From positions 416,001-480,000 of the forward strand of contig CAVSGI010000013.1 of the NCBI GenBank assembly GCA_963727445.1: a DNA stretch of 64,000 nt. Reading direction: 5' to 3'. Shown here in pieces: positions 9,934 through 51,182 of this stretch. The notes under the pieces were generated by a model that saw only the letters and a list, made by a program, of their open reading frames with translations, did not search any database and was not told the origin of the DNA. Position 1 is the stretch's first letter. Each line of letters begins with the position of its first letter. The translations under genes were made by a program, and so were the position numbers. Source of the DNA: an uncultured delta proteobacterium. GTDB taxonomy: Bacteria > Myxococcota_A > Polyangia > Polyangiales > B10-G4.

Positions 9934-9935
9934 CC

Positions 9936-10184
9936 TCAGGCCGCTGCGCTGGCGGTTGCCCGAGCCGCCGCGAAGGCCGCGGCCACGGCCAGGCCCGCCA
10001 TCGTCAGCCGCGCCTGCGCTGCGTCGACGAGGCCGCGAGACTCGAGATGGATGAGGGCGTGCGCCACCTCGGTGGGGCGGGCCCCGATCCGGCGGGCGAT
10101 CGCCGAGGCGTCGACCCGAAGGTTTTCGCTGTGGAGAAGGTAGAGGGTATCGAGGGTGCCGAGGACCAGAGTTTCGTGCGTCAT
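9936..10184 (-). CDS. Small winged-helix DNA-binding protein
   Basis: ASAIARRIG..PTEVAHALIHLESRGLV...RLT..G pattern. Confidence 0.65.
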   Translation of the reverse strand: MTHETLVLGTLDTLYLLHSENLRVDASAIARRIGARPTEVAHALIHLESRGLVDAAQARLTMAGLAVAAAFAAARATASAAA

Positions 10185-10314
10185 GGGCCCATCCTAGGCA
10201 CTACTGTTCACGCGTCCAGTTTTTGACGTTCAGTGATGAACGATCTGTCAGGAAGACTCCAGTTCATCAATGATTTCAGTTGCGGGGTTGGCGACGCATC
10301 CCTATGAGGGGCGG

Positions 10315-10797: not shown

Positions 10798-10798
10798 A

Positions 10799-10958
10799 AC
10801 GGGGACGGTCTACACTTTTCAACTTCCCCCCCTCACCTCCGCAAGACGGGGACGGTCTACACTTTTCAACTTTCTGCTCCCTCCGGGACGAAAGTTGAAA
10901 AGTGTAGACCGTCCCCCAGGAGGGGGGACGAAAGTTGAAAAGTGTAGACCGTCCCCGT
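10799..10958. repeat. REP-like cluster: 2 forward + 2 inverted copies of GGGGACGGTCTACACTTTTCAACTT
   Basis: Copies near 10801 and 10848 (+), 10891 and 10931 (-), between convergent genes. Confidence 0.9.
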
Positions 10959-13900
10959 TAGAGCGTGACTTCGACGATGATGAACTTGTTGCAGAGGCGC
11001 TTGTCGGTGACTTCGCGGATCTCTCGCGAGCCCATGAGGCCGCGGAAGCTGCCCATGCGGGTGTGCTCGAGGACGAAGAAGGTTCGCTCGCCAGCGTGCT
11101 CGTTGATGTATTCGCGCACCTTGACGTTGTCGAGGTCGACGAAAACGTAGACGCGGTTCGCCGTATAGAAGTTCTCGCCCTTCCAGTTCATCTGCCAGGC
11201 GAGGAGGTGCTCGTCCGGGCTCTCGCGCGCGTCGTAGTAGCTGTAGATCAGCTCGCGCATGCCCCAGTGCGGGGAGAGGTCGACCATGTAGATGTTGAGC
11301 ACCCAGGCCGAGAAGAGGATCGACGAGACCAGGAGCGCGCGCGTCGCGATCGGGCGCAGCCGCACGAAGATCGCTGCCGCGATCAGGAACGACATCACCA
11401 ACCCGAAGGCGGTGAAGGCCGGGCGATAGTCGAACTGATCCGGCCAGGGGCGACTGTAGTTGTAGACGAAGAGGTGGATCAACCGCTCGAAGCCGTGCGG
11501 CCGCGCATCGGTGATCCACGACAGGTCCCGCGCGACGAAGGCCACCAGCACCGCGCCCGCCGTCAGGAGCGCCGCGAGAGGCGCGTACTCGAGCGGCTCC
11601 TTCTTCTTCGCCCCGCCACTGCGCGAGAAGATGACCCAGGTGAAGGCGAGCCCCGCCACGCCCGCCGCGATCAGCGCCCAACACGTCGCGGGATTCCAGG
11701 CGTGCTGCGTCACCCACTCCGCGCGGTCGGCCTGCTCGACGCCCAGCGGAACGATCCCGCGCGGATCGCCCCAGAGGCCGGCGACGCCGAGAAGAGCGAG
11801 GCCCGTGCCCACCGCGATCAGCGCCCAGGACGCGAGCGAATTCCTGCCCTCGGGGGCGACCTTGCCGAAGAGCCTGTCGAGCAGGATGCCGGTCGCGAGA
11901 CCCGCCGATGGCACCACCGGGAAGATGTAGTGGTGGAACTTCGTGATCATCGCGCTGAAGAGCGTGAAGGCCGCGGCGAACCACACGGTGAGCACGATGA
12001 GGACCTGCTGTTGCCGGTCGGCTTCCTGTGAGCTGTCCGGAGTACGCATGGCGCGATAAGGCCCGCCGCCCGGATCGAGCGGCGCCGCCGACGCATAGCG
12101 ATTCCAGATGAAGAGCGTGAGCGCCGCCGGAACCAACGCGACCCACGGGAACATCCCGAAGCCGAGCTGCTCGATGAAGTACTGGATGGTCCCGGTGTCG
12201 CCGTGGACGCCCGCGGCGAGACGGTTGATGTGGTCGTGGATGAGGAGCCGGTCGGTGAAGGGCGGTCCATGCCGGATGAACATCGCCACGAACCACGAGG
12301 CGCCGGTCACCATCACCGTGAGCGCGCCCGCCGCGACCTTCAGGTGTCCGTCGAAGAGCAGGTACCAGCGCTTCGACGCGATCAGATAGAAGAGCGCGAT
12401 CATCCCGGGCAGCGCAAAGCCGGGGATGCCCTTCCCCATGAACGCCAGGCCGCAGAAGATGTAGAAGGCGAACATGAAGAGGCCGCGGGCGCGGCGCTCG
12501 TTGCGGATCATGTGGATGAGCCACACCAGCCCAGCGCCCCAGAAGGCGGCCTGGCCCATCGGCTCGAGGAGCGGCAGGTCGAAGCTGCCTGTGGTCGCGC
12601 GCACCACGCCCACGAAAGCGCCGATGCCGACGATGCCGCCGCCGAGGGTGATGAGCGCGGGCTTCCTGCCGCGCAGCCACCAGATCAGCCCGACCGCGAT
12701 CAGCAGGATGAGCCCGAGCAGCACGAGCCCGGTAGCCAGCGAGACGTCCGCCACGTAGGGGACGACGTCACGCGCCGGCGCGTTGCCCGGGACGTGGCTG
12801 TTGCCCGCGCTCCCGAACATGAACTGATCGCCGTGCCACGCGAAGGCGGGGCCGTCGGTGAAGGAGATGTTGCGCGACGCCAGGTAGAGGACCTGCGGCG
12901 TCACCAGCATGAACAGGAGCACCAGCACCGCGTGTCGCGCCGACAGCACGATGCGGCCGACGCGATAGAGCTGGACCTCGCGCTCGGGGTCCGCGGTGAT
13001 GGCGAGCATCATGAAGGCGATCGCCGTCGTCATGTTGGAGACGAGCGGCATGTCGGTGATCGCCTGGTGGGCGAGGAAGAAGAACTGAGGCATCGTCCCG
13101 AGGACGAGGGCCGAGAGGAGCCCGGCGCGCTTGCCGAAGCTGCGGCTCACCGCGAAGTACGAGGTGATCAGCGCAACCAGCGACATCGCGATGATCGGGA
13201 GCCTGAGGGCCCACTCCGCGTGGAACATCTGGGAATCGGGGTGGTAGTCGATCCCCAGCGAGCCCATGGAGAGCGCGTCGCTCCAGAAGATCAGGATCGG
13301 CTTCGACCAGAACCAGTTCTCCTGGCACCACCAGAGGCTGATCCAGTCGTCGCGCGCGAGGATCTCGCGAGACACCTCGCCGTAGTGCGTCTCCCAGGGA
13401 TCCCAGAGGCTGAAGGTGCCCGCGAGGGGCACGTAGATCAGCCCGATGATGATGAAGATCGCGAGTGGCGGGCGCTTGAACGCCGACGGCACCAGCAGGA
13501 GGAAGAAGGCGACGAGGACGTAGGGCAGCCCGTCCCACCCCGCGATCGGGGCGCCGGCGAAGAGCGTGACCAATGCCGCAGGCACGGTGACCTTTGGCGC
13601 GGCCCACCACGGCTCACCCTCTTGCTGACCCCACGCCGTCTGCATGAGCGGGATCGCATTGGGCGCCTTCATGGTCAGAAGACCGAGGAAGTCCAGGAGC
13701 CCGAAGGCACCGACGAGCAGCGCGAGGAAGCCCCAGATCGGACCGCGCGGGAGCTGGTCCGTGTTGGCCATCATCAGGAAGGTGGCCAGGAGCGAGCCCG
13801 CGAGGATCAGGCCGCCGCGGAGGCGGTGTGGGCCGATGGGCGTCTCGTCGTCGCGCGAGGTTGGCTTGGGAGGTGGAGCGCTGGACTTTCCGCCCGCGGC

Positions 13901-37807: not shown

Positions 37808-38638
37808 GTGCGCCCCTTTGTGATCGCCGTCGTGCTGCTGTTGGCCGCGCCCGCGATGGCGCAGCAAGGGGGCGTCGCGCGGACCGAGACGGCGACGGAT
37901 TCGGAGACGGACGCGGAGACGGAGACAGCGTCGGAAGTCGTGCCGCCGCCCCCCGAGGGGGGATCGGACGCGCCGGCGGAGGACGTCCGCTATCTGGATG
38001 CCGCGGCCAATCGCGTGGTGTGGCTGCCGACGGCCGAGACCAACCCCGAAGGCACGTTCTTCTTCGGCATCTACGAGGTGGTCGGGCTTCAGTTCGGCTA
38101 CGCCCTGACCGACGACTTCGAGTTCGCTCTCACCGGCGTCGTTCCCATCGACACCTTCCCCTACGCCTTCGACCTCTCCGTCAAATGGAACGTGCTCCGG
38201 CATCGGGTCTTTCGCGTCGCGCTCTTCGGCTCCCTCGGCGTCTACGTGGATGGTGACCGCGCCGAGACCATCGGTGGCCGCGCGGGCGCGTCGCTATCGT
38301 TCTGCCTCAACGACGACTGCACCTCCCAGCTGAGCCTCAGCGGCGGTGCGCTGATCGGCAACCACATCGACACCGAGCTCCCCCTCGCCATGGGCGCCGG
38401 CCTGGTGGTGCGCGTCCATCGGCTCCTCGCGCTGGTGGTGGAGCCGCTCTACGGGCGCATCGAGAAGATGAACGCCCCGGACGCCTTCGTCCTGAACTAC
38501 GTCTTCCGCATCGGGCAGCTCGACTGGTCCCTCGACGTCGGCATGACCCGCCCCTTCGTCGACGAGCTGAAGAGCGGCCCCTTCGTCGCGGGCATCCCCT
38601 GGCTCGCCTTCACCTATCGTCTCGGTTGGGAGCCCTAG
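37808..38638 (+). CDS. Putative outer-membrane beta-barrel protein
   Basis: Signal peptide, amphipathic strands, IPWLAFTYR terminus. Confidence 0.6.
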   Translation: MRPFVIAVVLLLAAPAMAQQGGVARTETATDSETDAETETASEVVPPPPEGGSDAPAEDVRYLDAAANRVVWLPTAETNPEGTFFFGIYEVVGLQFGYALTDDFEFALTGVVPIDTFPYAFDLSVKWNVLRHRVFRVALFGSLGVYVDGDRAETIGGRAGASLSFCLNDDCTSQLSLSGGALIGNHIDTELPLAMGAGLVVRVHRLLALVVEPLYGRIEKMNAPDAFVLNYVFRIGQLDWSLDVGMTRPFVDELKSGPFVAGIPWLAFTYRLGWEP

Positions 38639-38658: not shown

Positions 38659-39546
38659 TCAGAGCGTGTCGACCGAGGCGAAGCTGATGCTCAGCTCGCC
38701 TTCCGTCGGGAAGTCGACGAAGAGGATGCTGTCCGAGAGCAGGGCGGCGCCGTTGCCGGGGACGACGAGCTCGAGGGCGCTGAAGCGGTCCTCGGGATCG
38801 GGCGTGCCGGTGCCGTCTTGGTAGGTGACGAAGGTCGGGTGGGTGACCACCAGCGCGTCGGCGCCGGCGTAGATCGTCACGCTCGAGATGTGCAGGCCGA
38901 GCGCGACGCGCTGCGCGAAGAAGTGCAGCTCTGCACCGGGCAGGCCCACGTCGTCGAGCGAGATGACGTTGTCACCGTCGTCGACCGCCTGCGGGTTGGT
39001 CTCGTAGTCGCCGGCGACCGGGGTCGGATCTTCGCCGCCACCGCCGCCGCCACCGCCGCCACCACCGCCGCCCGCGTCGCCACCGACGCCACCGCCGCCG
39101 CCAGCGGCCGGCCCCGCCTCGAGGGTGATCCAATCGGAGACCACCTGCGCTTCGGTCGGCTGCCAAGCGGGCCCGCGGTGCGCGCCCTTCGTGACCAGAG
39201 TGCTCCGTCCGGGATCGCCGACGGTGACCACACCGCTCGCGAGAATCGTGTTGTAGGGATCGGCCATGTCGATGAAGACGGGGGCCGTGGCCGCGTCCGT
39301 GTGGCAGGCGGCGCAGCGGCTGTCGAGCAGCGGTAGCACCTGCGCGAGGAAGACCTGTTCGGGATCGGTCGCGGTCCCGTCGCCCGTGACGGGCGGCGTG
39401 TCGCCGGCGGGATCGGTCCCACCATCGGCGTCGCCAGGACCTTCCGGGGCCTCTCCCCAACCCGGTCCGGTGACCGTCGCTGCCTGACAGCCAGCGGCCG
39501 CGAGAGCGAGAGTCAGGATGTATGGAATCAAGCGCATCTCTCTCAC
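38659..39546 (-). CDS. Monoheme c-type cytochrome lipoprotein
   Basis: AAGC lipobox; F...V.PLL..RCAACH, GDP..S.L..K..H, W; poly-Gly linker. Confidence 0.75.
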   Translation of the reverse strand: MREMRLIPYILTLALAAAGCQAATVTGPGWGEAPEGPGDADGGTDPAGDTPPVTGDGTATDPEQVFLAQVLPLLDSRCAACHTDAATAPVFIDMADPYNTILASGVVTVGDPGRSTLVTKGAHRGPAWQPTEAQVVSDWITLEAGPAAGGGGGVGGDAGGGGGGGGGGGGGEDPTPVAGDYETNPQAVDDGDNVISLDDVGLPGAELHFFAQRVALGLHISSVTIYAGADALVVTHPTFVTYQDGTGTPDPEDRFSALELVVPGNGAALLSDSILFVDFPTEGELSISFASVDTL

Positions 39547-39741
39547 CTAGATCACTTCTGGTGCCAACACCTACGGCGCCTGAAATCACCGTCTTTTCCG
39601 GGCTGGCGGCTCATTTTCCAGCCGAATTTCGGGAGCCGAGAGCGCTCCATGCTCCCCAGCTGGTGGTGGTAATTGCTCGATGTTTCGCCTTTTTGCCGAT
39701 CGCGCCCTGGCCCGGTAGCTGCAGTGATCCGTCGCAGCCAG

Positions 39742-40230
39742 ATGCCTCGGCTTTTCTTCCACGTCCTCGCCACCCTCGCGCTGTCGGGCTGCGCTCTCGC
39801 GCCTCTGCCCGCCGATCCGCCCGAGCCGAGTCGCGCGGCGTTCGACACCAACATCTATCCGATCCTCGTGCGCGATTGCGGCTTCCCCGCGTGCCACGGC
39901 AATAGCGGTCGCTTCTTCCGCGTCTTCAGCCCGAGCCGCACGCGCCTCGACGAAGCCACGCCCCTCGCAGCGCCCGCGACCGATGCCGAGATCACAGCGA
40001 CCTACGAGCGTGCGCGCTCGATGCTCGCGGGCGCGTCTTCACCGGAGCAGGCGCTTCTCGTTCGCAAGCCGCTCGAGATCGATCAGGGCGGCGCGCCGCA
40101 CATGGGCATCGACATACACGGCCACGACGTCTACGCGAACAGCGACGCGCAAGGCTACGTGGCCCTGCTCGAATGGGCGCGCGCCGGTCAGAGCTTCGCC
40201 GCGCTCAGCGAGGATGGAGGCGCGCCATGA
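39742..40230 (+). CDS. Lipoprotein with CX4CH heme-like motif, paralogous domain to 38659..39546
   Basis: LSGC lipobox; F...IYPIL..DCGFPACHG, P..ALL.RKP..H.G, W. Confidence 0.7.
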   Translation: MPRLFFHVLATLALSGCALAPLPADPPEPSRAAFDTNIYPILVRDCGFPACHGNSGRFFRVFSPSRTRLDEATPLAAPATDAEITATYERARSMLAGASSPEQALLVRKPLEIDQGGAPHMGIDIHGHDVYANSDAQGYVALLEWARAGQSFAALSEDGGAP

Positions 40231-40934
40231 GACCGCTCGCCCTGCTCCTTCTTCCGCTCGGCGTCTCACTCTTCGCCCCGACGGCGCACGCCTTCCGCAC
40301 CGCGGCGACCTTCGACGATCCTGCGGCGGAAGGCGGAGGCGGCGCGCGGCACTTCACCGGCTCCGTTCAGGACGGCTACACCTGCGCGGTCTGCCATCGC
40401 GGCCGCGAGCCCGATCCGGTCGAGCTCACCGGCCTGCCCCTCGAAGGCTACGTGCCCGGCGGCGCCTACGAGATCGAGATCATCATGCCCAACGCCCCGG
40501 CGAGCTCTCTCGCGCTCGAGCTCACCGACGAGCTCGGCGGCGGCGTCGGCTCGCTCGCCCTGCCCGCGGCGCCCGCGGGGCCCGAGCTCTGCACCACCGG
40601 CGACCCCGCTACCAGCCGGGTGTCGCTCGGTGACCGCGCCGTGATCGCCATGAACGCGTGCGGCGCCCAGCGGGTGCGCGCGATCTGGACCGCACCCGAC
40701 CAGCCGCTGGGGCCCGTCTGGTTTCACGCGGTGGTGGTCACCGGCGACGACAACTCCGACACCGAAGGAGACGGCGTCGAAGAGATCGCCCACGTGATCC
40801 CGGTCGCGGGCGCCAGCGCCGAGGCCGCACGCGTGGGCACCTCCGCTTGCAGCGCGGCGCGCGGGGCGCCTTCCCGCCTCGCCTGGCTCCTGCTTCCCGT
40901 CCTCTGGCTCCTCGCGCGCAGGCGTCGCGCCTAG
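40227..40934 (+). CDS. Reeler-like exported protein with CxxCH and MYXO-CTERM-like tail
   Basis: FTGS...TCAVCH, GYVPG..YEI.I, WTAP; C + TM + RRRR; ATGA overlap with upstream gene. Confidence 0.7.
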   Translation: MRPLALLLLPLGVSLFAPTAHAFRTAATFDDPAAEGGGGARHFTGSVQDGYTCAVCHRGREPDPVELTGLPLEGYVPGGAYEIEIIMPNAPASSLALELTDELGGGVGSLALPAAPAGPELCTTGDPATSRVSLGDRAVIAMNACGAQRVRAIWTAPDQPLGPVWFHAVVVTGDDNSDTEGDGVEEIAHVIPVAGASAEAARVGTSACSAARGAPSRLAWLLLPVLWLLARRRRA

Positions 40935-40937
40935 GCG

Positions 40938-42608
40938 CTAGCGCGAAGCGATCATGACCTCGCGGGTCTCGGGTCGCTCGAGACCGACGACCCGGTAGCC
41001 ACCGCCGGCGAGCTGGTAGAGGTGGACGCGCGCTGGACCGGGCGCGTCTTCGCCGGGCGTCTCGGCGATGACGTCCACGATCACGTAGCCAGGCGTCTGT
41101 CGCGCGGGCAGGGTGACGCAGACCCGCCCGTCCTCCGTGGGGCGCGGCTCGATCGCCGGGCCGGGGACGGGAGGCCAACCCAGATAGCTCCGCGCCGAGT
41201 GCGCTCGCCCGTTCGCCTCGCGGAGGCCGGAGCGCAGCGCGAGATCGTCGAGGCAGAGCTCGTCCCCTTCGGCGACCGGATTGGCGAGCGGTGAGAGGCG
41301 GGTGAGGAAGCGCTCGAGGATGCGCATCTGACGACCGCGGAGGATGCGGACGAGCTCGTTCGTCACCAGGGGCTTCGAAAAGCGACCCGTCTCGACCATC
41401 GCCCGGATCGACGGCTCGTCCAGCCGGCTGATGATGCGAGCCATCCACGCCGAATCGCGCTCGGTTCGCCGCTCGAAGGCTTCGTTCGGATAGCCGTTAC
41501 GCCAGTCTTCGGGATCGAATCGCTCCACGTCGTAATAGCCGATGTACCGGTATGCCGGCCCGCGCGTCGACCCGCGATAGGGACGCGACAAGAGCCCCAG
41601 GGTCAGCAGATCCTCGGTGACGTATTCGAGGTCGAGGTAGCGGGCGACGCCGAAGGTCTGGCTCTCCATGTCGGAGGAGGGCCAGGCGATGCCCAGGGAG
41701 TCGCCGGCGTCGAGGACGAGGTGGCGGATGAAGCCGTTGCCGTCGTCGTCGGTCTCGACCCAGATGTCGAGGTTGTTCTCGGCGCGGGTGTCGATGTGGT
41801 TGAGCCAGGCCGACGCGACGTACATCCCGCGGACCTCGCGACGGTCCTGGTGCGCGAAGACGTCGTTGGGGTCCGCGTCGCGAACGCCATCGAACTGCCA
41901 TCCGCCGAGGGGCGTTCCATCGACGAATCGGCTGACGCTCGCGCGGAGCATCCCGCCCGGCGCCTCGCCCGCCGCGTCGATCAGAGACGCCAGGTGCTCG
42001 GGGGTGTAGGGCCGATCGTGTCGCCCGCCGGTGTGCGCGCCCGGCGCGATGGAGATGTCCGACGGCTCGAAGAAGACGACCTGATTGCAGGGGACGTAGT
42101 AGCCGAGGGCATGGAAGAACCGCGTGGCGATGGCGTCGGCGGCGGTGCCGCGCTCCGGCTGCCAGAAGTCGAGCTTGAAGACGTACTTCTGCCCGTCGGC
42201 GGCCTCGATGATCGCGCCGGGGGTGGTCCCGCTGAGCTTGCCCTGAACGACCTGCCAGGGCTTGGGCGGAAGCGCCTCGGACGGACAGGCGCCGATCGCG
42301 AGCTCGCTGGGGTTCATCTCGCGAACGCCGATGCGGTTCTCGAACCAGCTCGAGCTCGGGACCTCGTCGAGTGAGTTGACGTTGACCGCTTCGGTGGCGC
42401 GGCGGAACTGCCACAGCTCGGAGAGCTGGCGAAAGACGACGTTGTCGCCCTGGTCCCAGGCCCAGGGGGTGTAGAGCTCGTCGGGCATCGGCCCGAAGGC
42501 GACCTGATCGGCGTCGACCCAGATCGGATCGCGATTGGGAAAGGGGTGCATGGTCGCGGCCCCGCAGCCGGTGGTGAGGAGCACTAGCAGGATCGCCATC
42601 CGCCTCAC
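40938..42608 (-). CDS. Lipoprotein with probable atypical protein-kinase-like fold
   Basis: TTGC lipobox; KLSGTTPG, YVFK, E..TAA, WLNHIDTRAENN, LDAGDSLG; GTGA overlap with upstream barrel gene. Confidence 0.6.
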   Translation of the reverse strand: MRRMAILLVLLTTGCGAATMHPFPNRDPIWVDADQVAFGPMPDELYTPWAWDQGDNVVFRQLSELWQFRRATEAVNVNSLDEVPSSSWFENRIGVREMNPSELAIGACPSEALPPKPWQVVQGKLSGTTPGAIIEAADGQKYVFKLDFWQPERGTAADAIATRFFHALGYYVPCNQVVFFEPSDISIAPGAHTGGRHDRPYTPEHLASLIDAAGEAPGGMLRASVSRFVDGTPLGGWQFDGVRDADPNDVFAHQDRREVRGMYVASAWLNHIDTRAENNLDIWVETDDDGNGFIRHLVLDAGDSLGIAWPSSDMESQTFGVARYLDLEYVTEDLLTLGLLSRPYRGSTRGPAYRYIGYYDVERFDPEDWRNGYPNEAFERRTERDSAWMARIISRLDEPSIRAMVETGRFSKPLVTNELVRILRGRQMRILERFLTRLSPLANPVAEGDELCLDDLALRSGLREANGRAHSARSYLGWPPVPGPAIEPRPTEDGRVCVTLPARQTPGYVIVDVIAETPGEDAPGPARVHLYQLAGGGYRVVGLERPETREVMIASR

Positions 42609-43999
42609 AGCGTGTTCCTCGTGCCGAAGGTGAGTCGGAAGTTGGTGAGGGAGCCGCCGAGGTCGAAGGGCTCGGTTCCGGCCGCGATGGTGATCTCGAG
42701 GGGGTTGTCGCCCATGCCTGAGAGAAGAGGTGCGAGCCCGAGGCCGAAGGAGAGTCGGGTTCGGCCGATGGCGAAGTCCTCGAAGTGCTCGCCGAAGACG
42801 TTGCCCACCGCTACGTGGATACGCGCGTCCAAGAACGCCCAGATCGGATAGGTGTAGTGGAGCTCGAGCACCGCCGCGCTCTGACCGCGAAGAACGCCCG
42901 GCTGAAAGCCGCGCATCGGTCCATTGCCCCCCAGATCGACGAGCGCGTTGAAGGGCACCTGACCCGGACCGCCGGTGGGCGTCACCAGCCCGACCGCGCC
43001 GGTGATCGCGAGGACGCGGTGCTCTCCGAAGATGTCGTAGGCCACCGTCGACTCGGCGCCCCACCGAACCCAGCGCACGTCGGGCAGGCCGGTGATGAGC
43101 GCGTGCTCCTCCGCGTAGCCGCTGATCCGAAAGTGCGTTCCCTCCCTCTCGTCCCTCTTTTGGGTGTCGAAGACGAAGGTGAAGCCGCCATAGACTTCCG
43201 AGAAGTTGGTACCCAACCCATAAGGCGTGGGCTCGCCGATCTGCGCCGCGAGGTCACCCGCCGCTGGATCGTTTCGCCACCCCTGGCTCTCGAGATGGTA
43301 GTAGCGGTAGCCCGCTTCGTAGGTGAGCTTCGTGGAACGCCACGGCCGAAGCTGGAGTCGCAGGGTCGGCTGGTAGAGAACCTCCTCGTAGCGCCCCCAG
43401 CGAACGTTGACACCCGAGGTCCGGCTGGTCGCATCCCAACCGATGCCCGAGTAGATGAAGTCGGGCCGCCGATGGGTGTGGAAGCGCAGCGTCAGATCGC
43501 CGCTGTCGTGCGCGAAGGTGTAGCGGTCGTGCGCGGTGAGCGAGAGCCACTGCGGCCCCCAGAACCCGCCGTGGATCGCCACGCGGTTGTCGTCGACCAG
43601 GAGGTTCTTCCACTGAAAGTAGAGGCCCACGCTCGGGCTCAAGCCGAACTCGTAGAGGAACGTTGGCACGATCAGCCCGTCGTTGTTCTTCCCGAGCTGA
43701 AAGACGTCGACGAGGGTTTCGACCACCTGCTCGCGCTCGACGACGGTGAAGATCGCGCCGAGGGGGCGCCGGATCAGGTATTCGCTCGTGAGATAGAGCG
43801 GAGACAGCAGGATCCGTGGGATCCAAAGCACGTTGTCGATGGCGTCGGGCGGCGCCGGTGGCCGACCGTCGAGATCGGGCGTCGGTCGCTTGCCCCGGTC
43901 CTCGGCGAAGGCCACCGGCGAGAGCGTGACGCTCAGGGCGACGGCGACGATGACCAGCGCACAAGCGTGCTTCAACTGGTTGTGCGTCGCATGACCCAT
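42605..43999 (-). CDS. Omp85 (BamA/TamA-like) barrel without evident POTRA domains
   Basis: LGGNGPMRGF...LRG loop motif, ELHY.YP, SFGLGL, C-terminal FRLTFG. Confidence 0.7.
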   Translation of the reverse strand: MGHATHNQLKHACALVIVAVALSVTLSPVAFAEDRGKRPTPDLDGRPPAPPDAIDNVLWIPRILLSPLYLTSEYLIRRPLGAIFTVVEREQVVETLVDVFQLGKNNDGLIVPTFLYEFGLSPSVGLYFQWKNLLVDDNRVAIHGGFWGPQWLSLTAHDRYTFAHDSGDLTLRFHTHRRPDFIYSGIGWDATSRTSGVNVRWGRYEEVLYQPTLRLQLRPWRSTKLTYEAGYRYYHLESQGWRNDPAAGDLAAQIGEPTPYGLGTNFSEVYGGFTFVFDTQKRDEREGTHFRISGYAEEHALITGLPDVRWVRWGAESTVAYDIFGEHRVLAITGAVGLVTPTGGPGQVPFNALVDLGGNGPMRGFQPGVLRGQSAAVLELHYTYPIWAFLDARIHVAVGNVFGEHFEDFAIGRTRLSFGLGLAPLLSGMGDNPLEITIAAGTEPFDLGGSLTNFRLTFGTRNTL

Positions 44000-44051
44000 C
44001 GCGCGAAGTATCGTCCATCAAGACGCGCGCAGGGTTCAACGAAGTTCGACC

Positions 44052-45614
44052 TCAGGGTCGATAGGTGACGCGGATCACGCCGTAGCGAGCGACGTCGCTC
44101 ATGTCGCCTTCGCGCTCGCTCGCGAGGAACGCATGCGCCTCGCGGAAGACGAGATCGACGTCCAGCTCCGGGAGGAGGGCCAGGCGCACCTGCGCCTCGA
44201 CTCCCACCAGGAACCCGTCGCTGACCGCGCCCGCCTGCGCGACCTCTTCGCTGACCGAGCTCACGTGCCCGACCTCGGGGACCACGCCGAGCACGAGCGG
44301 CCCCTCGTCGCCGATCGGGAAGTAGAGCCCGATCCGCCCGTAGGGCCCGGAGAGCGTGTAGGTGGGCATGGAGAGCGGAAGCTCGCTGTCGAGCATGCGA
44401 AAGCCCCAGCCCGCTTCGATGTTCATCCGCACCGCGCGAACGCTGTCGGCGAGGGCGAAGTCGAGGTTGGCGCCGATGGCCAGCTCCTGGGAGCGGGTGT
44501 CGACGGTGCGGGTGCTGCCGTCGGCCCGCTGGTCCTGCGCCTGCAGGCCCACCGAGGTGTAGTAGCGGGTGCCGAGCCCGAGCCGGAGCGAGCTGTCCTC
44601 GCCGGGGCGGAGCCAGACGTTGAGGGCGGCGGCGACGGCGGGGAAGGGCGAGGAGGAGAAGCGCCCTTCGCCCGTCTCCATGGGCACGGCCGCCGTGCGC
44701 TGCCCGAAACCGAGGCCGGCGGTCACGTCGAAGCCCCACTGCCGCGACATGTAGCCACCGGCGAGTGCGCCGTCATCGCCTTCGCCGTCGACGTCCTCCT
44801 CGTCCTCTTCCTCGTCGAGCGCCTCCTCTTCTTCCTCCACCGCGGCTTGCTCTTCTTCGGGCTCCGGCGCGGCGCGACGTCGGCGAGCTCGGCGGCGCCG
44901 CGGCGCCGTCTCCTCGGCGGGTGGCTCGGCGCCCTGGGCCTCCCAGTCGAGCGGCGGCGGAAGTCCGTCTGCCGTCTCGGCGCCGGACGGCTCTTCACGC
45001 TCGGCGGGCTCGTGAGCAGGCTCCGGCGCTTGCGGCTCCGAGAAGCGGCGGATCGCCGAGGTGCGCCGGCCCGCGCGCTCGCGGCTGCGGCCGCGTCGTG
45101 CGCGCGTGGGCTCCTCGGCCCGCGCGACGCGCGCGCGCCCCCCGCCACTCTGCGCGCGCGCCGCCGCCGATGCGAGGTCGCGGAGGATCGCCGACGTGAC
45201 ACCGCCACTGAGGTGAACGCCGCGCAAGCGATAGGTGCGGCCGAAGAGCTCGGCGCCGCTCCGGCCGTGGTAGTAGCGAAGGCGCAGGAGCTTGTCGCGG
45301 CCGCTGACGCCGAAGCCCGCGACCACGATCACGTGCGCGCCCTGGCGCGTGCCGAAACGACGAATGGCGGCGCCGTTCGCCGGCGACATGCTGCGGACGC
45401 GAACCGCAGAGGTGTAGGCGCTGCTGTCGATGAGGCGCGCGCCGCGCACCAGGACTCGGGGAACGGCGCGACGCATGGGACCGGGGAGGCTGGGGGCCGC
45501 GACGAAGAGCGCCTTGGTCTGCTGGGCCGACGCTCCGCCGGGGAACGACGCGATCAGCATCGCGACCACGATTCCGGAAAGAACGAACAGCCATCTGTTA
45601 CCCGCACACGTCAT
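44052..45614 (-). CDS. Exported protein: basic N-domain, acidic linker, C-terminal beta-barrel
   Basis: ASA signal peptide; poly-Glu/Asp linker; amphipathic strands ending GVIRVTYRP. Confidence 0.65.
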   Translation of the reverse strand: MTCAGNRWLFVLSGIVVAMLIASFPGGASAQQTKALFVAAPSLPGPMRRAVPRVLVRGARLIDSSAYTSAVRVRSMSPANGAAIRRFGTRQGAHVIVVAGFGVSGRDKLLRLRYYHGRSGAELFGRTYRLRGVHLSGGVTSAILRDLASAAARAQSGGGRARVARAEEPTRARRGRSRERAGRRTSAIRRFSEPQAPEPAHEPAEREEPSGAETADGLPPPLDWEAQGAEPPAEETAPRRRRARRRRAAPEPEEEQAAVEEEEEALDEEEDEEDVDGEGDDGALAGGYMSRQWGFDVTAGLGFGQRTAAVPMETGEGRFSSSPFPAVAAALNVWLRPGEDSSLRLGLGTRYYTSVGLQAQDQRADGSTRTVDTRSQELAIGANLDFALADSVRAVRMNIEAGWGFRMLDSELPLSMPTYTLSGPYGRIGLYFPIGDEGPLVLGVVPEVGHVSSVSEEVAQAGAVSDGFLVGVEAQVRLALLPELDVDLVFREAHAFLASEREGDMSDVARYGVIRVTYRP

Positions 45615-46754
45615 CTAGAGCTCCAAGCTGAGGGCCAGGGTCGCGTCCCCGGCGAACACCTCGTTGAGACCGACGAAGTCCTGATAGACGAAGACCGTCC
45701 CTCCCACGGCCAGTCCCAAGCGAATCGCGATGTCGTCGCTGACATCGAAGGACTTCTCGAAGCTGAGGGCCACGCGGTTCGAGAACATCGGTGAGAGCTC
45801 TCGATCGCGCGTCACGTAGCGAAGCGCCCCGGTCGGCGCGGGATAGGTCGAGCGATAGAAGCCCGCGGCGCTCTGCGTGTAGAAGCGATACCTGAGCGTG
45901 AGCACCGTGTCCTCCGACGGAAGCCACGCCACCTGCGCGATCGCTGTGTGCGCCGCCACGCCCCAGTCGTCGAAGTAGAAGCGATAGCCGATCCCCGCCG
46001 AGGTGTCGCTCGACAGTGCGTAGCGCCCGCGCACCACGAAGGCGTTGCGGATGCGCGTATCGGGGTGTGCCTCGGGCACGCAGAGGATCGCGGTGCCGCC
46101 GCACTGCCCGTCGCCGCCGAGACCGACGAATCGGTAGGGGCTCGACTGAAATCCCTGACGGTACGCTCCCTCCCAGACGCCCTGCACCAGCGCTTTGGGG
46201 GAGAGGATCTGCGTCATGACCAGCCTCAGGCCGTAGGTCGAGAGCGGTCGCGAGAAGTTGGCGTCGCCCGAGCGCCCGACGAGGTCGTAGGAGTAGTGAA
46301 AGCTCTCTTCGAAGGTGGTCGTGTTGTTGGCCAGCTCCTGCGTCGAGCTCAGCCCGACGCCGTGGGAGGTGTAGTCGTTCTCCCCCGAGAAGTAGTAGCT
46401 GGCGTTGAGCGTCGCGTTGTCGAGCTCGTGACCGACGCCGACGTCGATCTGATCGCGCTGCTCGCTGACGGCCTTGGTCGCGGCCGTCCGGATGTCGATG
46501 GAGGCGCTGGTCCAGATGTCGGCGGTGTAGCCGACGTTCGCCGTCGTCCGGTCGGCGTTGAAGCGCGTCTGAACGCCGGCATGCGGGCTGATCACCGTCG
46601 TGTGATCCGTGTCGCCCCGAACGAAGACCGACGCGGTTCCGTCGTTCGCCTGAACACCAGGCGTCAGGCCCAGCATCGCACCGAAGACGAGCGCGGCGAA
46701 CGGCGCGCCCAGAGGGCGCCTCGTTCGTCGCGTTTTCTTCGGGGGAGATGTCAT
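45615..46754 (-). CDS. DUF3570-like outer-membrane beta-barrel
   Basis: D.TTVISP, D..TSAS.D, SGENDYTS, Q.SPYR, E.HPD.R.R, YRFYFDDWGV.AHT, YRFYTQS.A.FY, TRDRELS. Confidence 0.85.
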   Translation of the reverse strand: MTSPPKKTRRTRRPLGAPFAALVFGAMLGLTPGVQANDGTASVFVRGDTDHTTVISPHAGVQTRFNADRTTANVGYTADIWTSASIDIRTAATKAVSEQRDQIDVGVGHELDNATLNASYYFSGENDYTSHGVGLSSTQELANNTTTFEESFHYSYDLVGRSGDANFSRPLSTYGLRLVMTQILSPKALVQGVWEGAYRQGFQSSPYRFVGLGGDGQCGGTAILCVPEAHPDTRIRNAFVVRGRYALSSDTSAGIGYRFYFDDWGVAAHTAIAQVAWLPSEDTVLTLRYRFYTQSAAGFYRSTYPAPTGALRYVTRDRELSPMFSNRVALSFEKSFDVSDDIAIRLGLAVGGTVFVYQDFVGLNEVFAGDATLALSLEL

Positions 46755-46788
46755 CGGAGCTCTTCACGCGTGGCGTGACTGAGTGGCA

Positions 46789-49700
46789 TCAGCGGGCGAT
46801 GTAGACGGCGGCGTTGCCTTGCGCCTGACCGTCCGCATCGAAGTAGCTGTCGAGGACGACGCCCACTTCGGGATCGGTCAGCTTCTGGATGAGCCGGGCA
46901 CCGAGCGGTCCGCTGGTGTACCCGTTGAGGGAACCGCCGCGGAGCTGTTGCACGCGTGTGCGGTCGATGGCGGCGTGTGACGACGAGACGTTCGAGACCC
47001 CGTTGGGCTCGACGAGACCGTCGAGGTTGTAGACGACGTTGTCGGGGTCGAAGTTGTCGGCCGGAGCGCCGCCCGGGCAGTACTGCCGGTTGGCGTTGTT
47101 GTCGAGCGGGTTCACCGGACAGCCGGTCTCGTCGAAGAGGAAGAGACCAGAGCCGAGGCCGGCGACCATGTGCACGAAGAGGGGCGAGTTGATCTGGTTG
47201 CCCGGGTTCTGCCCGATGTGCTGCGCGAGGAGAGCGAAGTCCAGCGAGCGGAAGTCGTTGGCCTCCATCGCGGTGCGGAACGCGTCGTACTCCCCGCCGA
47301 AGGCGGCGAGCGAGTCCTCGTTGAGGTGGCAGGACACGCAGTAGCGCGGGCCCTCGTTGGTGGCTTCGACCCGACCACGGATCGAGTGCGCCATCATCGT
47401 GTCGTGGCTGAGGGCGCCGAAGTCGTCGCGACCGCCGATGCCCGGGTTGTTGCCGTTGCCCTGGCGGTCGGTGAAGCCGAACACCTGGGACTCGTCGCCG
47501 TTGATGTCCTGGTAGCGGAAGAACATCTGGATCCCCGGCGAGGACTGCGTGATCTGACCCCGGGCGTTGACGCCGAGGTAGAAGGGCACGGGCGTGATGT
47601 AGGTGAAGTCCGCGTTCGGGACGAAGTTCGCGATGCGCTCGCCGGTGATGTTCGAGAACCAGTAGTTCTCCGGATTGTCGTCGTACTGCCCCTTCAGGTG
47701 ACAGCCGATGCAGTTGTTCGTCCACGAGCTGTGGCAGGTCTGACAGGCGAGGTTGTCGGTGTGGCTGAAGCCGAGGGTGACCGTGTCGGGGTCGGCCTGC
47801 AGCGGACCGATGCCGGTGGCGTTGTTGCCGTCCGCGCGCCCCATCGCGTAGGACGCGACCGGGTTGTAGACGTACTCGCCGGAGAGCGGATTGCGCCGCC
47901 CGGTGTCGACCGTGGTGTCGCGGGTCTGTGGGACGAAGTGGCGGCTGCCGTTGAGGCGGCTGATCAGCCAGTAGTTGCCGTCCGTGTCGCGGGTGACGTG
48001 ACGCACCGGGTTGCCGCGCCGGTCGATGGCGCAGTCGGCGGCGCTGCCGTCGTAGGTCTCGCAGGGGCCGGTGGCAGCGTAGGAGCCGACGCCGCCGTGG
48101 CAGGACTGACACTCGATGGCGACACCCTCGTCCATGCGCGAGATGATGTTGCCGCTCGTGGGATCGCCCCGCGTCCCGTTGTGGACGTCGCGGCTGCCGT
48201 GACAGTCGATGCAGCCGAGGCCCGCCTCGTGGTGGACGTCCGCCGGTGTGTCGTCGCGACCGTCGCCGTCGTAGTCCTCGGTCAGGATGTACTGCTCGGG
48301 CACGCGGCCGTTGAAGGTGTTGTTGGCGATCGCCGGGTCGTAGAGCCGATCGTCGGCGGCGGTGTTCTGGAACGTGACCGGGTTGGTCGGGTACTGCGTG
48401 TCGTTCTCGAGGTCCTGGTTCTGGTCGAGGCGGATGCCCCAGAACTGAAGCACCGTGCGGTTCGATCCCTGGTGACAACCCACGCAGGCGTAGTCGCTGA
48501 TGCCGCGGAGGAACGCGCCGCCGGGAAGGAACTTCGCGACGTTGCGGATCTGGTGCGCATCGATGTGCGAGCGCTCGGGCGCGGCGATCGCGTCGGGGTT
48601 GAACGGCTCGAAGTGGTTGACGTTCGGGTCGGTGGAGCGGCTGCGGCCGTCGGTGCTGTACTCCATGTGGCACGCCGTGCAGCCGGAGCTCCGGAAGTCG
48701 CCGTAGCGGTTGTTCTGGCCGGCGCTCCCGAGGTGGCAGTCGCCGCACTGGAAGCCGACCGCCTCCATGTACACGTGCTCGAGGGGCGAGCCGTCGATCA
48801 TCTGGTTCGCCTGGTCGGCGCCGTCGGCGGTCGTGAAGACCTGGTTCGACATGTTGTCGGCGTCGTAGAGCTCGTTGCGATAGATGCCGCTTCGGTCGCC
48901 CCACTGCGCCCGCTCGGGCCACTCGTAGACCTCACCGACCGTGCCGACCTCGTCTGCCGGGCCCGCCCAGTCGGGATCGGTGCGCGCGCGGAAGGCGTAG
49001 TCCGCCGCGGTGTCCTCCCACAGCCCCTCCTGGCCGGGAACGACGTTGTCGAGGCCGACCGTGTAGGTCGCGCCCGAGAAGATGCCGGTGGAGTTACCGA
49101 AGGGGTGACGCGACACCCACTGGACGTGCTCCTCGGCGTGGCACCCGGGGGTGCCGCAGCCCTCGCCGTTGGTCACGACGCGGAGGTCGCCGGGGTTGAC
49201 GAACTGCAGGTACTGAAGCGCCGTGTAGGTGACGCCGTCGACGGTGTAGTCGGGGAGCTTGTCGATGCCGGCGAGGGTGAGGCGGTTGAAATACGCCTCC
49301 TGGTCGAGGACGCGGTAGGCGTCGTCGCCGATCTCCGGAGGCGGCGGCACGTGGGAGCCGAGCTTGCCGGTGCCGTTGCCGTCGCCGCCGTGGCAGGTGG
49401 TGCACTGCACGTACTCCGCGCCGGTGAAGGGGTGCGGGTTGCTCATGCCGGGGCCCGCGTAGTCGTTGCGGTCGGAGCCGTTGTGGCAGCCCATGCAGCT
49501 CTCGGCGGGGCCAGGCTCGGCGACGGGAGGGGGCGCGTCGGGGCTGGGCTCGCAGCTGGGATTGGCGTTGCAGAACTGCGGGTCACACTCACAGCACGCG
49601 ATGCGGTACTCGAGGTCCGTCTCGGCGCACCGGTCGAGCGCGCTGCAGTCGTAGACGGTTCCGCGGAAGTCGTACGCGTCGCACATCGGGCGCTCGTACG

Positions 49701-49812
49701 GTCCGTCGGGGCGCGGCGGGCCGCCGTCACCTGCTTCGAAGTCGGTGTTCGCGCAGGCGGCGGCACCGACGATCAGCGCGAGGAGCAGATACTTTTCTTT
49801 ACTCACGTGCAT
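46789..49812 (-). CDS. Large multiheme c-type cytochrome lipoprotein (10 CxxCH + 1 CX4CH)
   Basis: CMGCH, CTTCH, CGTPGCH, CGDCH, CTACH, CVGCH, CIDCH, CQSCH, CQTCH, CIGCH, CVSCH; GAAAC lipobox. Confidence 0.92.
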   Translation of the reverse strand: MHVSKEKYLLLALIVGAAACANTDFEAGDGGPPRPDGPYERPMCDAYDFRGTVYDCSALDRCAETDLEYRIACCECDPQFCNANPSCEPSPDAPPPVAEPGPAESCMGCHNGSDRNDYAGPGMSNPHPFTGAEYVQCTTCHGGDGNGTGKLGSHVPPPPEIGDDAYRVLDQEAYFNRLTLAGIDKLPDYTVDGVTYTALQYLQFVNPGDLRVVTNGEGCGTPGCHAEEHVQWVSRHPFGNSTGIFSGATYTVGLDNVVPGQEGLWEDTAADYAFRARTDPDWAGPADEVGTVGEVYEWPERAQWGDRSGIYRNELYDADNMSNQVFTTADGADQANQMIDGSPLEHVYMEAVGFQCGDCHLGSAGQNNRYGDFRSSGCTACHMEYSTDGRSRSTDPNVNHFEPFNPDAIAAPERSHIDAHQIRNVAKFLPGGAFLRGISDYACVGCHQGSNRTVLQFWGIRLDQNQDLENDTQYPTNPVTFQNTAADDRLYDPAIANNTFNGRVPEQYILTEDYDGDGRDDTPADVHHEAGLGCIDCHGSRDVHNGTRGDPTSGNIISRMDEGVAIECQSCHGGVGSYAATGPCETYDGSAADCAIDRRGNPVRHVTRDTDGNYWLISRLNGSRHFVPQTRDTTVDTGRRNPLSGEYVYNPVASYAMGRADGNNATGIGPLQADPDTVTLGFSHTDNLACQTCHSSWTNNCIGCHLKGQYDDNPENYWFSNITGERIANFVPNADFTYITPVPFYLGVNARGQITQSSPGIQMFFRYQDINGDESQVFGFTDRQGNGNNPGIGGRDDFGALSHDTMMAHSIRGRVEATNEGPRYCVSCHLNEDSLAAFGGEYDAFRTAMEANDFRSLDFALLAQHIGQNPGNQINSPLFVHMVAGLGSGLFLFDETGCPVNPLDNNANRQYCPGGAPADNFDPDNVVYNLDGLVEPNGVSNVSSSHAAIDRTRVQQLRGGSLNGYTSGPLGARLIQKLTDPEVGVVLDSYFDADGQAQGNAAVYIAR

Positions 49813-50154
49813 TTGGTTCCCCTGGGTTCCCGAGCGAAGGGCGCAGGAACCCCAGAGCGGCGGTGGCCACTCCCTCCATGCGCTCGGTCGAGCCAAAGCG
49901 ACCGTCGCGCCGCCCCACGCGTAGCTCGATCCGTGCCCATCGACTTTCCCTTGAAAAGAGACGTCCTCGATGTGTGCAGGAGCAGGCGCCGTACCTACAC
50001 GGAACGCTCCCGGTTCCAATTCGGAGGCACTTCCGCGCCTGGCGCAGACGTGGGTCGCGCGGCGCAGGTCACGGGCCGTTCACTCGGTGATTCTCAAGGT
50101 AACAGCGCAGCGCTCGGGCCGCTGTTACGGTAGCTGCGCGGTTCGTTTCGACGC

Positions 50155-50170
50155 TGGCCCGCCGTTTGCT
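50155..50170 (+). promoter_or_regulatory. Putative sigma54 -24/-12 promoter for the TlpA-DUF4266 pair
   Basis: TGGCCCGCCGTTTGCT: GG-N10-GC spacing, followed by GGAGG (50183) and ATG (50199). Confidence 0.6.
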
Positions 50171-50198
50171 GCACGTAACGGTGGAGGTTCACTGCCGC

Positions 50199-50699
50199 AT
50201 GGAACGAGCTCGACGACTCATCACCTACGCCATCGTCCTGTCGACGGCGTTTCTGATCACACGCTACGCGTCCGCGATCGACGAAGGCTCGAGGGCCCCA
50301 CAGTTTCGCGCCGACAGCTTCGACGGCGGACGGGTGAGCCTCTCCTCTTCTCGAGGCAAGGTGGTGGTCGTCGACTTCTGGGCGTCGTGGTGTGAGCCGT
50401 GTGGCCACGCGATGCCGGCCCTCGATCGCATCTACCAGCGCTACAAGGATCACGGGCTGGTGGTGATCGGCGTCAGCGTGGACGAGCGCGCGCGCAACGC
50501 GCGCGGCTTCTTGCGTCGCACCCGGGTCTCCTTCCCGGTGGTTCACGATCAGGACCACGCGGTCGCCGAGCGCTACAGCCCGCCGACCATGCCCAGCACC
50601 TACATCATCGACAGGCGCGGCGTGATCCGGCACGTCCACGCGGGCTTCCGCAGCGGCGACGCCCGCGTCCTCGAGCGACAGATCCGAGATCTGCTTTGA
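50199..50699 (+). CDS. TlpA/ResA-family exported thiol-disulfide reductase
   Basis: GKVVVVDFWASWCEPC, MPSTYIIDRRG. Confidence 0.92.
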   Translation: MERARRLITYAIVLSTAFLITRYASAIDEGSRAPQFRADSFDGGRVSLSSSRGKVVVVDFWASWCEPCGHAMPALDRIYQRYKDHGLVVIGVSVDERARNARGFLRRTRVSFPVVHDQDHAVAERYSPPTMPSTYIIDRRGVIRHVHAGFRSGDARVLERQIRDLL

Positions 50700-50920
50700 T
50701 CCGCGATCTCCGCCGCACGCTGCTGCTCCTCGCGCTGATGGTCGGCGCGACGGGATGCATCACGCTCCAGCCGTACGAGCGCGAGAACCTGGCGCGCTCC
50801 GACATGCAGTTCGGTGGCGGGGGCGGCGCCGTTCACGGCGCGGAGTCACACGCGACGGAAGTGCGCGAAGGCGCGGTCGGCGGCTTCGAAGCCGCGGGAG
50901 GTGGATGCGGGTGTAACTGA
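50696..50920 (+). CDS. DUF4266-like small lipoprotein
   Basis: TGC lipobox, PYERENLA..DM, H...REG..GG..GGGCGCN terminus; TTGA overlap with TlpA stop. Confidence 0.85.
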   Translation: MIRDLRRTLLLLALMVGATGCITLQPYERENLARSDMQFGGGGGAVHGAESHATEVREGAVGGFEAAGGGCGCN

Positions 50921-50930
50921 CGCGCGCCGC

Positions 50931-51182
50931 TCAGTGCGGGCAGGGCGCGTCGTCGTCCATCGCGCCCGAGGAGTACGGGCACCCGGAGGAGGAGGTGTAC
51001 GGGCATCCACTGGATGCGCCGCACGAGCTCCGCAGCATGCAGCGCGCCGAGGTGGCCGCGAAGAGCCCCACCGCGATCAGCGCGACGATCAATCCCACCT
51101 TCGTCGAACGATCGGCGGCGAGCCACTTGAGCTTGATGAACCGGGCGGCGAGCCCGAAGACGGAGGAGGGACGGCGATCCAT
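50931..51182 (-). CDS. Small membrane-anchored Cys-Pro-repeat protein
   Basis: One TM then CGASSGCPYTSSSGCPYSS..PCPH*. Confidence 0.6.
   Translation of the reverse strand: MDRRPSSVFGLAARFIKLKWLAADRSTKVGLIVALIAVGLFAATSARCMLRSSCGASSGCPYTSSSGCPYSSGAMDDDAPCPH

Follow-up and report, generated by a model that had tools for sequence, protein, structure and literature searches.

Clade-specific linkage of an 11-haem lipoprotein family with a DUF3570 module in a myxobacterial envelope locus

With what could a multihaem lipoprotein exchange electrons when no second multihaem cytochrome is encoded beside it? This question is raised by a locus in the genome of an uncultured delta proteobacterium of the Polyangiales (assembly GCA_963727445.1; 27 contigs, 85.6% complete), which we studied within a window of 64 kb, that is, the whole stretch of DNA analysed (positions 416,001-480,000 of contig CAVSGI010000013.1), numbered from its first letter. 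Here, gene H, for a lipoprotein with 11 haem-binding motifs, is followed by G, for a DUF3570 protein, and by F, for a two-part protein with a predicted outer-membrane barrel; the divergent genes I and J encode a thioredoxin of the TlpA/ResA type and a DUF4266 lipoprotein, and three small exported haem-motif proteins (A, B and C) are encoded nearby. A sequence-only reading of this DNA had proposed an undescribed outer-membrane redox conduit, possibly fed by thiol chemistry. Our analysis favours, with a probability of roughly 0.5, the view that in the core of the locus (H, G, J, I and F together with A, B and C) two redox modules of the cell envelope have been united within one clade, and that this core likely passes electrons between the periplasm and the cell surface. 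Every recognisable part of the locus agrees with a redox role in the envelope; the conduit function, the direction of flow and the surface exposure of its proteins go beyond this and are inferred.

Genomic company of the 11-haem lipoprotein

H carries a lipobox (..GAAAC) and, in agreement with the earlier count, 11 haem motifs, ten of them CxxCH and one CX4CH (CGTPGCH), all invariant in an alignment of 22 sequences. In the same alignment, nine further His residues outside the motifs are invariant and two near-invariant, and 11 conserved non-motif His for 11 haems would fit a set of all-bis-His electron-transfer haems. Among the candidates scored, 847 homologues were found at an expectation value (E) ≤0.001, and the 120 listed are 54-90% identical to H over approximately 90-100% of its length. 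They come from Sandaracinaceae, other Myxococcota, Bradymonadia, Gammaproteobacteria (including Kaarinaea lacus), Acidiferrobacterales and others, and are annotated as hypothetical, 'cytochrome c3 family' or 'Ig-like domain-containing' proteins. Judged by these comparisons, the H family is large, spread over several phyla and unusually conserved; no name, structure or description of it was found in the literature. A Pfam and NCBIfam scan returned a Cytochrom_c3_2 match, and the ExtM model (NF040943) scored 75.9 bits against a cut-off of 800, the best stretch being confined to H residues 686-775. When the H profile was compared with all PDB sequences, no meaningful relative was retrieved, NrfA alone appearing at chance level (E 0.066).

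A scan of GTDB with one genome per species yielded 276 stretches that encode an H relative, of which the best 80 were kept with flanks of up to 10 kb, and all their open reading frames (ORFs) were searched with the window proteins and with profiles built from their orthologues. F was found in 10 of these 80 loci (L016-L025), accompanied by G and J in nine of the ten, by A in seven and by B, C and I in six each; the records belong without exception to Sandaracinaceae, Polyangia or unclassified Myxococcota. F, G, J and I were absent from the other 70 loci, apart from a weak I-like match in L041, and D, E and K, three further genes of the window locus, had no homologue in any of the 80. In a second sample of 41 order-level relatives, H was present in seven genomes, including that of the window. 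Within the Sandaracinaceae/Polyangia clade defined by both samples, a common locus unites H and G in 12 of 13 genomes, 11 of which have the two genes directly side by side. The adjacency of cytochrome and DUF3570 genes, on whose conservation the earlier proposal had been made to depend, is therefore kept despite shuffled gene order, and this linkage supports a functional unit.

With regard to gene order, I followed by F diverges from H, G and J in L017, L019, L021, L022, L023 and L025; F is divergent from H, and I is missing, in L018 and L020, and L024 is ordered differently. In the relative G035, H, G and J run one way and I and F the other, with C, B and A nearby. The relative G023 shares with the window the divergence of I and J from H, G and F, and indeed the entire order from Z and A through B and C onwards, but lacks D and E; a homologue of Z, the gene adjoining A, stands at the same place (E 8.8e-88), whereas none turned up in the other related loci. 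F, present in all ten of L016-L025, is mostly co-directional with I and directly downstream of it. In a FastTree phylogeny of 79 H sequences, the window and L016-L025 form one group with local support of 99, nested in a group of 33 rows that are mostly Myxococcota records; this single group is consistent with one origin of the union of H with DUF3570. As a separate observation, H of G023 is split over at least four reading frames (L138, G023:C6:525000-544999, at about 8849-12384), which may indicate a decaying gene or assembly errors in this 54%-complete genome.

The company of H in the remaining loci is of another kind. A further ORF with at least three CxxCH motifs lies beside H in 42 of the 80 loci, namely 27 of the 28 with a 565-aa (amino acid) exported protein and 15 of a further 34. 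The eight loci with a B-like protein after H and the ten clade loci hold no such ORF. The group of 28, mostly from Planctomycetota, has H behind an exported protein of 565-609 aa that belongs to no known family; in those examined, the genes ahead of H also include those for a membrane-anchored 7-haem cytochrome, for a 23-haem cytochrome and for a protein with Fer4 and Pyr_redox_3 domains, and DUF2959 is encoded downstream of H. Loci of Acidiferrobacterales and Nitrospiraceae carry multihaem genes of the c7 type along with the same Fer4/Pyr_redox_3 protein, and the partners of H outside the clade range from 7- to 27-haem cytochromes. In the group of eight, which lack DUF3570 and mostly bear Myxococcota or Bradymonadia titles, the gene after H encodes a protein whose Cys-x(2,4)-Cys-His domains resemble those of A or B. 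Four gammaproteobacterial loci (L029, L036, L077 and L086) hold at most one other CxxCH ORF, with two motifs, in L086 and L077. In sum, H usually accompanies multihaem cytochromes, and in the clade of the window the DUF3570 set replaces them; as the clade loci have no other multihaem gene, something else must connect H there.

The same survey showed that L035 (3134-12685), L056, L063 and 25 further loci, mostly of Planctomycetota but with L063 from Acidiferrobacterales, share a conserved cluster of Fer4/Pyr_redox_3, 23-haem, 565-609-aa, 7-haem, H and DUF2959 genes, which has the look of an entire, though undescribed, electron path across the envelope. A barrel fold for the 565-aa protein of Planctomycetota was considered and dropped, being unsupported by a crude test of beta-amphipathicity (z -0.7 and -0.3); distant kinship of this protein with F or G, and of F with G, was likewise rejected (hhalign probabilities of 0.1-1.3%).

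The DUF3570 side of the union recurs within the genome itself, which encodes five DUF3570 and five DUF4266 proteins, always in a shared locus. A locus on contig C4 (~231900-241200) holds paralogues of G (E 2e-120), F, J, A, B and C (the last of 792 aa) as well as further haem-motif lipoproteins, with neither H nor TlpA, and one on contig C10 consists of J, G and a B-like dihaem lipoprotein in this order. G, F and J with small haem-motif proteins are a recurrent module of the lineage, and the window locus is this module plus H and TlpA.

Components of the locus and its limits

The family labels originally given to G, J and I held up. G matches DUF3570 (PF12094) with 144.6 bits at a cut-off of 25, and with 130.4 bits at the same place in the whole-genome search; J matches DUF4266 with 52.6 bits at a cut-off of 27; and I is a thioredoxin-type protein with a WCEPC motif. 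According to the accessible text of Meheust et al. (PMC8238504), the substrates of ApbE include DUF3570, with its two [S/T]GA[S/T] motifs, as shown for a Chlorobium luteolum protein. In G, two tandem sites are seen, D79-I-W-T-S-A-S85 and D87-I-R-T-A-A-T93, within a stretch that reads D-[IV]-W-[TS]-S-A-S-[IV]-D-[IV]-R-T-A-A-[TS] across the 124 sequences of its subfamily. D, A and S of site 1 are kept in all 124, and D, A and T/S of site 2 in 122; the Gly position is occupied by Ser at site 1 (117/124) and by Ala at site 2 (118/124). In a model protein, replacement of this Gly by Ala in D-x-x-[S/T]-G-A-[S/T] cut flavinylation to ~50% and did not abolish it (PMC12052999, accessible part). The five DUF3570 paralogues of the genome align at one D-x-x-[ST]-x-A-S site; a genome-wide count of D..[ST]GA[ST] gave 27 mostly chance-like matches and was uninformative. 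Taken together, the signal peptide of G and its beta-amphipathic pattern (z 3.2 vs 2.0 for the barrel of F in a crude test) suggest an outer-membrane barrel. A Cys pair, C218/C225, is conserved in the subfamily as well; it lies in an insert missing from the paralogues on contigs C10, C14 and C15, and the C-x-C tail of DUF4266 may have its partner in this pair.

A lipoprotein ApbE is encoded elsewhere in the genome (C6:398546-399694), as is the only DsbD_TM match (C5:214774-216291), and none of the five DUF3570/DUF4266 loci is near either of them. Among the four relatives carrying the locus, ApbE was found in three, the miss being a 54%-complete genome. FMN_bind, NqrB/RnfD and DUF2271 were not found in the window's own genome, which is 85.6% complete. 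With ApbE present and no other substrate family found, the DUF3570 proteins are the only recognised candidate substrates, following the logic of PMC8238504. Two observations around these genes stand by themselves. A second ApbE-like match, split over two frames, lies at C5:220928-221337, ~5 kb from the DsbD_TM gene. Furthermore, the gene upstream of and overlapping ApbE (G000:C6:399691-400512) encodes a 273-aa exported protein ending in ..GGFQVRFP, without a Pfam match or a flavinylation-like site, which may be a small ApbE-linked outer-membrane protein.

F, the 'second barrel' of the sequence-only reading, proved to have one in its C-terminal part when modelled with AlphaFold2 (AF2) from 58 sequences (predicted local distance difference test, pLDDT, 80.6). 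Residues 30-156 form an alpha/beta domain close to the N-terminal domain of TolB (Z 9.9, root-mean-square deviation 2.7, 112 aligned) and to LpoB (Z 8.7), residues 159-289 a disordered linker of ~130 aa, and residues 290-520 a 10-strand barrel with VIA Z values of 21.1 for pOmpT, 19.2 for OpcA and 18.6 for a Legionella Dot/Icm porin, and a Foldseek match to Pla/OmpT (E 5e-8). In the model, then, F is a 10-strand outer-membrane barrel that bears a TolB-N-like domain on a long tether. Its family comprises 254 cluster representatives at E≤0.001, many of which correspond to the C-terminal 220 residues alone.

As regards the thiol-redox pair, I matches the Pfam families AhpC-TSA (100 bits) and Redoxin (88 bits), and also Thioredoxin_8 and Thioredoxin; PF13899 is absent among its Pfam matches at E≤0.01, and its best NCBIfam match is ResA, with 114.5 bits, below the cut-off of 170. 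J has a lipobox (..TGC), and its C-x-C tail is invariant in seven orthologues. A conduit fed by thiol chemistry is possible, as the earlier reading supposed, but is not the sole interpretation, since the ResA-like I may instead serve the attachment of haem to H.

Of the three exported proteins formerly described as having single haem motifs, A and C have one CxxCH each; B has a CX4CH instead. Across the whole window, CxxCH proteins are limited to A, C and H, and A, B, D, F and K have no Pfam or NCBIfam match. A has orthologues in seven related loci and a paralogue in the contig C4 locus, and B has paralogues on contigs C4 and C10; proteins resembling B also come after H in seven other loci that lack DUF3570, most of them with Myxococcota or Bradymonadia titles. 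C scores 37.6 bits with NF041895, below the cut-off of 42, and 20.1 bits with the MYXO-CTERM model TIGR03901 on its 50-residue tail alone (cut-off 20; 15.9 for the whole protein); with GC_trans_RRR the tail gave 17.0 vs 15.85. Five entries annotated as long DUF3570 proteins (P0223, P0232, P0234, P0235 and P0236; 608-634 aa) hold a complete C-like sequence with its sorting tail and, directly after it and in frame, a G-like part with a signal-like stretch of its own. They are probably adjacent genes called as one, which places C next to G once more.

Genes were called from third-position GC (0.83-0.93 across all genes A-K, in a window with a G+C content of ~69%) and by direct reading of the ORFs (Table 1). 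The coordinates bear out the gene order and tight spacing first described, with 34, 0, 52 and -4 bp between H and G, G and F, F and E, and E and D, respectively. I and J overlap by 4 nt (TTGA), as do B and C (ATGA), and I has an alternative TTG start at 50166. None of the spaces between locus genes holds a terminator-like site. The region has three such sites (4.6 expected), of which G and E contain one each and the third falls immediately within the beginning of I. Within the 386-bp divergent intergenic region of H and I, ~70 nt before I, an inverted repeat of GTAACAGCG and CGCTGTTAC may act as an operator or form a hairpin in a 5' leader.

Table 1. Genes and other features of the locus, in window coordinates
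Feature	Position	Strand	Description
H	46789-49812	-	1007-aa lipoprotein with 11 haem-binding motifs
G	45615-46754	-	DUF3570 protein of 379 aa with signal peptide; Polyangia subfamily
F	44052-45614	-	Signal peptide, TolB-N/LpoB-like domain, linker and 10-strand outer-membrane barrel (as modelled)
I	50199-50699	+	Exported thioredoxin of TlpA/ResA type, WCEPC
J	50696-50920	+	DUF4266 lipoprotein, C-terminus GGGCGCN
A	38659-39537	-	292-aa lipoprotein, one CAACH
B	39742-40230	+	162-aa lipoprotein, CX4CH (CGFPACH)
C	40227-40934	+	Exported protein, one CAVCH, weak choice-of-anchor-V match, MYXO-CTERM-like tail
D	40938-42608	-	556-aa lipoprotein of an unnamed family; neighbour outside the conserved unit
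E	42605-43999	-	Exported Omp85-like protein; neighbour outside the conserved unit
K	50931-51182	-	83-aa ORF with hydrophobic stretch and Cys/Pro/Ser/Gly-rich tail
Z	37808-38638	+	Exported 276-aa protein adjoining A; no family match
Inverted repeat	50099-50128		Perfect 9-bp repeat GTAACAGCG/CGCTGTTAC with 12-nt spacer

The limits first drawn around the locus hold for the core genes, which do occur together, and fail for D, E and K. E, described as an Omp85-like barrel, does match Omp85 (PF01103; E 9.8e-5) over its C-terminal 138 residues, but with 22.4 bits it stays below the cut-off of 24, and it has no PDB relative by sequence. D is indeed a lipoprotein, without a PDB relative; the kinase fold also ascribed to it, of Fam20/HipA-like type, is weakly hinted at by language-model neighbours (Fam20C 0.80, HipA 0.79), all below 0.9. 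Relatives of D occur in 14 of the 41 related genomes, often in several copies, and a second copy in the own genome lies at G000:C8:565741-567399. An E homologue was found within the 1.5-kb flanks of 21 of 26 other D loci (that on C8 and 25 in relatives, L097-L122, all of Polyangia-type genomes), and F, G, H, I and J were found in none of these flanks. By this distribution, D and E are a separate multi-copy two-gene module that sits between C and F in this genome; being missing from the otherwise same-ordered locus of G023 and found alone elsewhere, they fall outside the core unit, although they may be co-transcribed with locus genes. The membership of K is doubtful: it is coding-like (third-position GC 0.89), and a phmmer search recovered no homologue in the 80 H loci or in stretches of five relatives.

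Proposed electron route and rival explanations

In the route that we propose, G would be an outer-membrane barrel carrying flavin mononucleotide (FMN) on S85 and T93, attached in trans by the lipoprotein ApbE of the genome. On the periplasmic side, G would receive electrons from the small haem lipoproteins A and B and/or from a thiol relay that leads from DsbD through TlpA (I) and the C-x-C tail of DUF4266 (J) to its Cys pair; at the surface, it would pass them to H and to C, the latter sorted there by MYXO-CTERM. G would in this way stand in for the multihaem partners encoded with H in other phyla, and F would serve as the link between the outer-membrane assembly and a partner in the periplasm or inner membrane, which it would reach with its long linker and TolB-N-like domain. 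The full version, in which a DUF3570 barrel with two covalent FMN replaces the multihaem partners of H and is fed from the cytoplasmic thioredoxin pool via DsbD, TlpA and the DUF4266 C-x-C tail as a hybrid flavin-haem conduit, is tentative, and we would not expect all of its steps to hold.

Several points weigh against the proposed route. Both sites of G depart from the canonical [S/T]GA[S/T] motif, reading T-S-A-S and T-A-A-T, and an effect of Gly to Ser, the change at site 1, on flavinylation is not covered by the accessible text of the cited reports. The barrel fold of G, the position of its sites and the contacts between locus proteins are presumed, and the surface location of H is assumed from its lipobox only; the AF2 model of H, built from 22 sequences, was unusable (pLDDT 44.6). 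With the genome's own ApbE as query, no ApbE was detected in the 80 H loci, in the stretches of five relatives or in the four paralogous loci, and no DsbD gene occurs in the window locus or any related locus. I is of the AhpC-TSA/Redoxin type and not of PF13899, and its role may be cytochrome maturation alone. In the same-genus relative G001 (on the contig that also holds L016), A is followed by H and F with no G between them, and the contig ends ~200 nt after F. Finally, several Gammaproteobacteria have H without recognisable redox neighbours; H standing alone there indicates that a partner encoded nearby is not always needed.

According to the main rival, the locus matures and places H: the sole task of I would be to hold the 11 haem-attachment sites of apo-H in the reduced state, G and/or F would be proteins of the outer membrane by which H is exported or anchored, DUF4266 would be an accessory, and H would be fed by unlinked periplasmic cytochromes. 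The ResA match of I is in line with this explanation, and so is the fact that, among the five DUF3570/DUF4266 loci of the genome, a TlpA gene stands beside the H-bearing one only; some gammaproteobacterial H loci, moreover, are without any redox partner genes. However, the other 70 H loci have no TlpA neighbour, leaving aside the weak match in L041, so that H does not generally need a dedicated one. Moreover, the DUF3570 family has been shown to be flavinylated, and hence redox-active (PMC8238504, accessible text), and a pure anchor role would leave the two near-invariant sites of G unexplained. On balance, we consider a purely maturational unit unlikely, albeit worth keeping in view.

Less likely than maturation are two further explanations. 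Meheust and coworkers report 25 DUF3570 clusters with the VIT1 iron transporter (PMC8238504, accessible text), which would suit a locus that reduces Fe(III) or another metal, outside the cell or in the periplasm, with a view to uptake and not to respiration; the Pfam-scanned locus genes, however, include no transporter, TonB-dependent receptor or iron regulator (no Fur-box search was made), and such iron handling seems to us distinctly improbable. The weakest candidate, to which we give very little credence, is that H and the DUF3570 module are adjacent by chance and work separately. H does occur without DUF3570 in 70 of 80 loci; the C4 locus has G, F, J, A, B and C but no H, and on the G001 contig H is followed by F with no G. 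Yet mere adjacency accounts poorly for co-location in 12 of 13 clade genomes through at least three gene orders, for the start of G 34 nt after H in the window and for a region whose terminator-like sites (three against 4.6 expected) all lie outside the spaces between genes.

Systems of the DUF3570/DUF4266 kind, orphans as to acceptor and purpose, are common, and one DUF3570 protein has been shown to be flavinylated. The pairing seen in the clade suggests a testable hypothesis, namely that a flavin-bearing outer-membrane protein and a haem lipoprotein exchange electrons, and the linkage would give each of the two orphan systems, the DUF3570 module and the H family, a partner with which it can be tested. 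If they do exchange electrons, outer-membrane electron transfer would gain a second cofactor logic, and myxobacteria and planctomycetes would be implicated in redox processes outside the cell. Were the thioredoxin-fed flavin-haem conduit also true, it would constitute a route from thiol chemistry to the surface without a described counterpart.

Comparison with known systems

The locus resembles MtrCAB, MtoAB/PioAB and the Geobacter Pcc/Ext systems in that a lipoprotein multihaem cytochrome is encoded beside a predicted outer-membrane protein, and the weak likeness of H residues 686-775 to ExtM (75.9 bits) points the same way. It differs from them in the lack of a periplasmic multihaem partner, no other ORF with at least three CxxCH being present in the ten related loci either, and in the lack of an MtrB/PioB porin match: at E≤0.01, the Pfam matches of the three proteins E, F and G are limited to Omp85 (E) and DUF3570 (G). 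MtrB, moreover, has ~700 aa, compared with 379 in G.

A further parallel is the uet cluster of 'Ca. Tenderia electrophaga' (bioRxiv 10.1101/2022.05.06.490989), whose undecahaem cytochrome UetJ has been proposed to be extracellular. Compared by description, both sets combine an exported 11-haem cytochrome with a beta-barrel protein; in its accessible text, however, the preprint lists no DUF3570 or DUF4266 for uet, and the four gammaproteobacterial H loci whose ORFs and CxxCH counts were read hold at most one other CxxCH ORF. The H loci of Planctomycetota, Acidiferrobacterales and Nitrospiraceae, for which no published description was found, encode members of the same 11-haem lipoprotein family, 53-62% identical to H, but have other multihaem partners in place of DUF3570, DUF4266, F and TlpA.

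The closest counterpart of the DUF3570 side is the group of TlpA-like/DUF4266/DUF3570 clusters that Meheust et al. (2021; PMC8238504) describe, in the accessible text, as associated with ApbE flavinylation and of 'uncertain' function; a preprint on sorting signals likewise shows, in its accessible part, DUF4266, DUF3570 and a 'TlpA disulfide reductase family protein' as neighbours in a few species. No description of a link between DUF3570 and a multihaem protein was found in the literature, although the supplements of Meheust et al. may hold such clusters. As far as these clusters are described there, they share with the window locus a DUF3570 protein, a DUF4266 lipoprotein with a C-x-C tail and an exported thioredoxin-fold protein encoded together, and two tandem sites near the N-terminus of DUF3570. 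The window locus differs in having neither ApbE nor DsbD, in the replacement of Gly at both sites and in a thioredoxin of the AhpC-TSA/Redoxin type where theirs is PF13899, and it adds the 11-haem lipoprotein, the TolB-N/10-strand-barrel protein and three haem-motif proteins. The locus was consequently not undescribed in all its parts, as had been supposed: the DUF3570/DUF4266/thioredoxin system is known, and appears here without apbE and with altered sites, and what is new is the H family and its clade-specific linkage to DUF3570.

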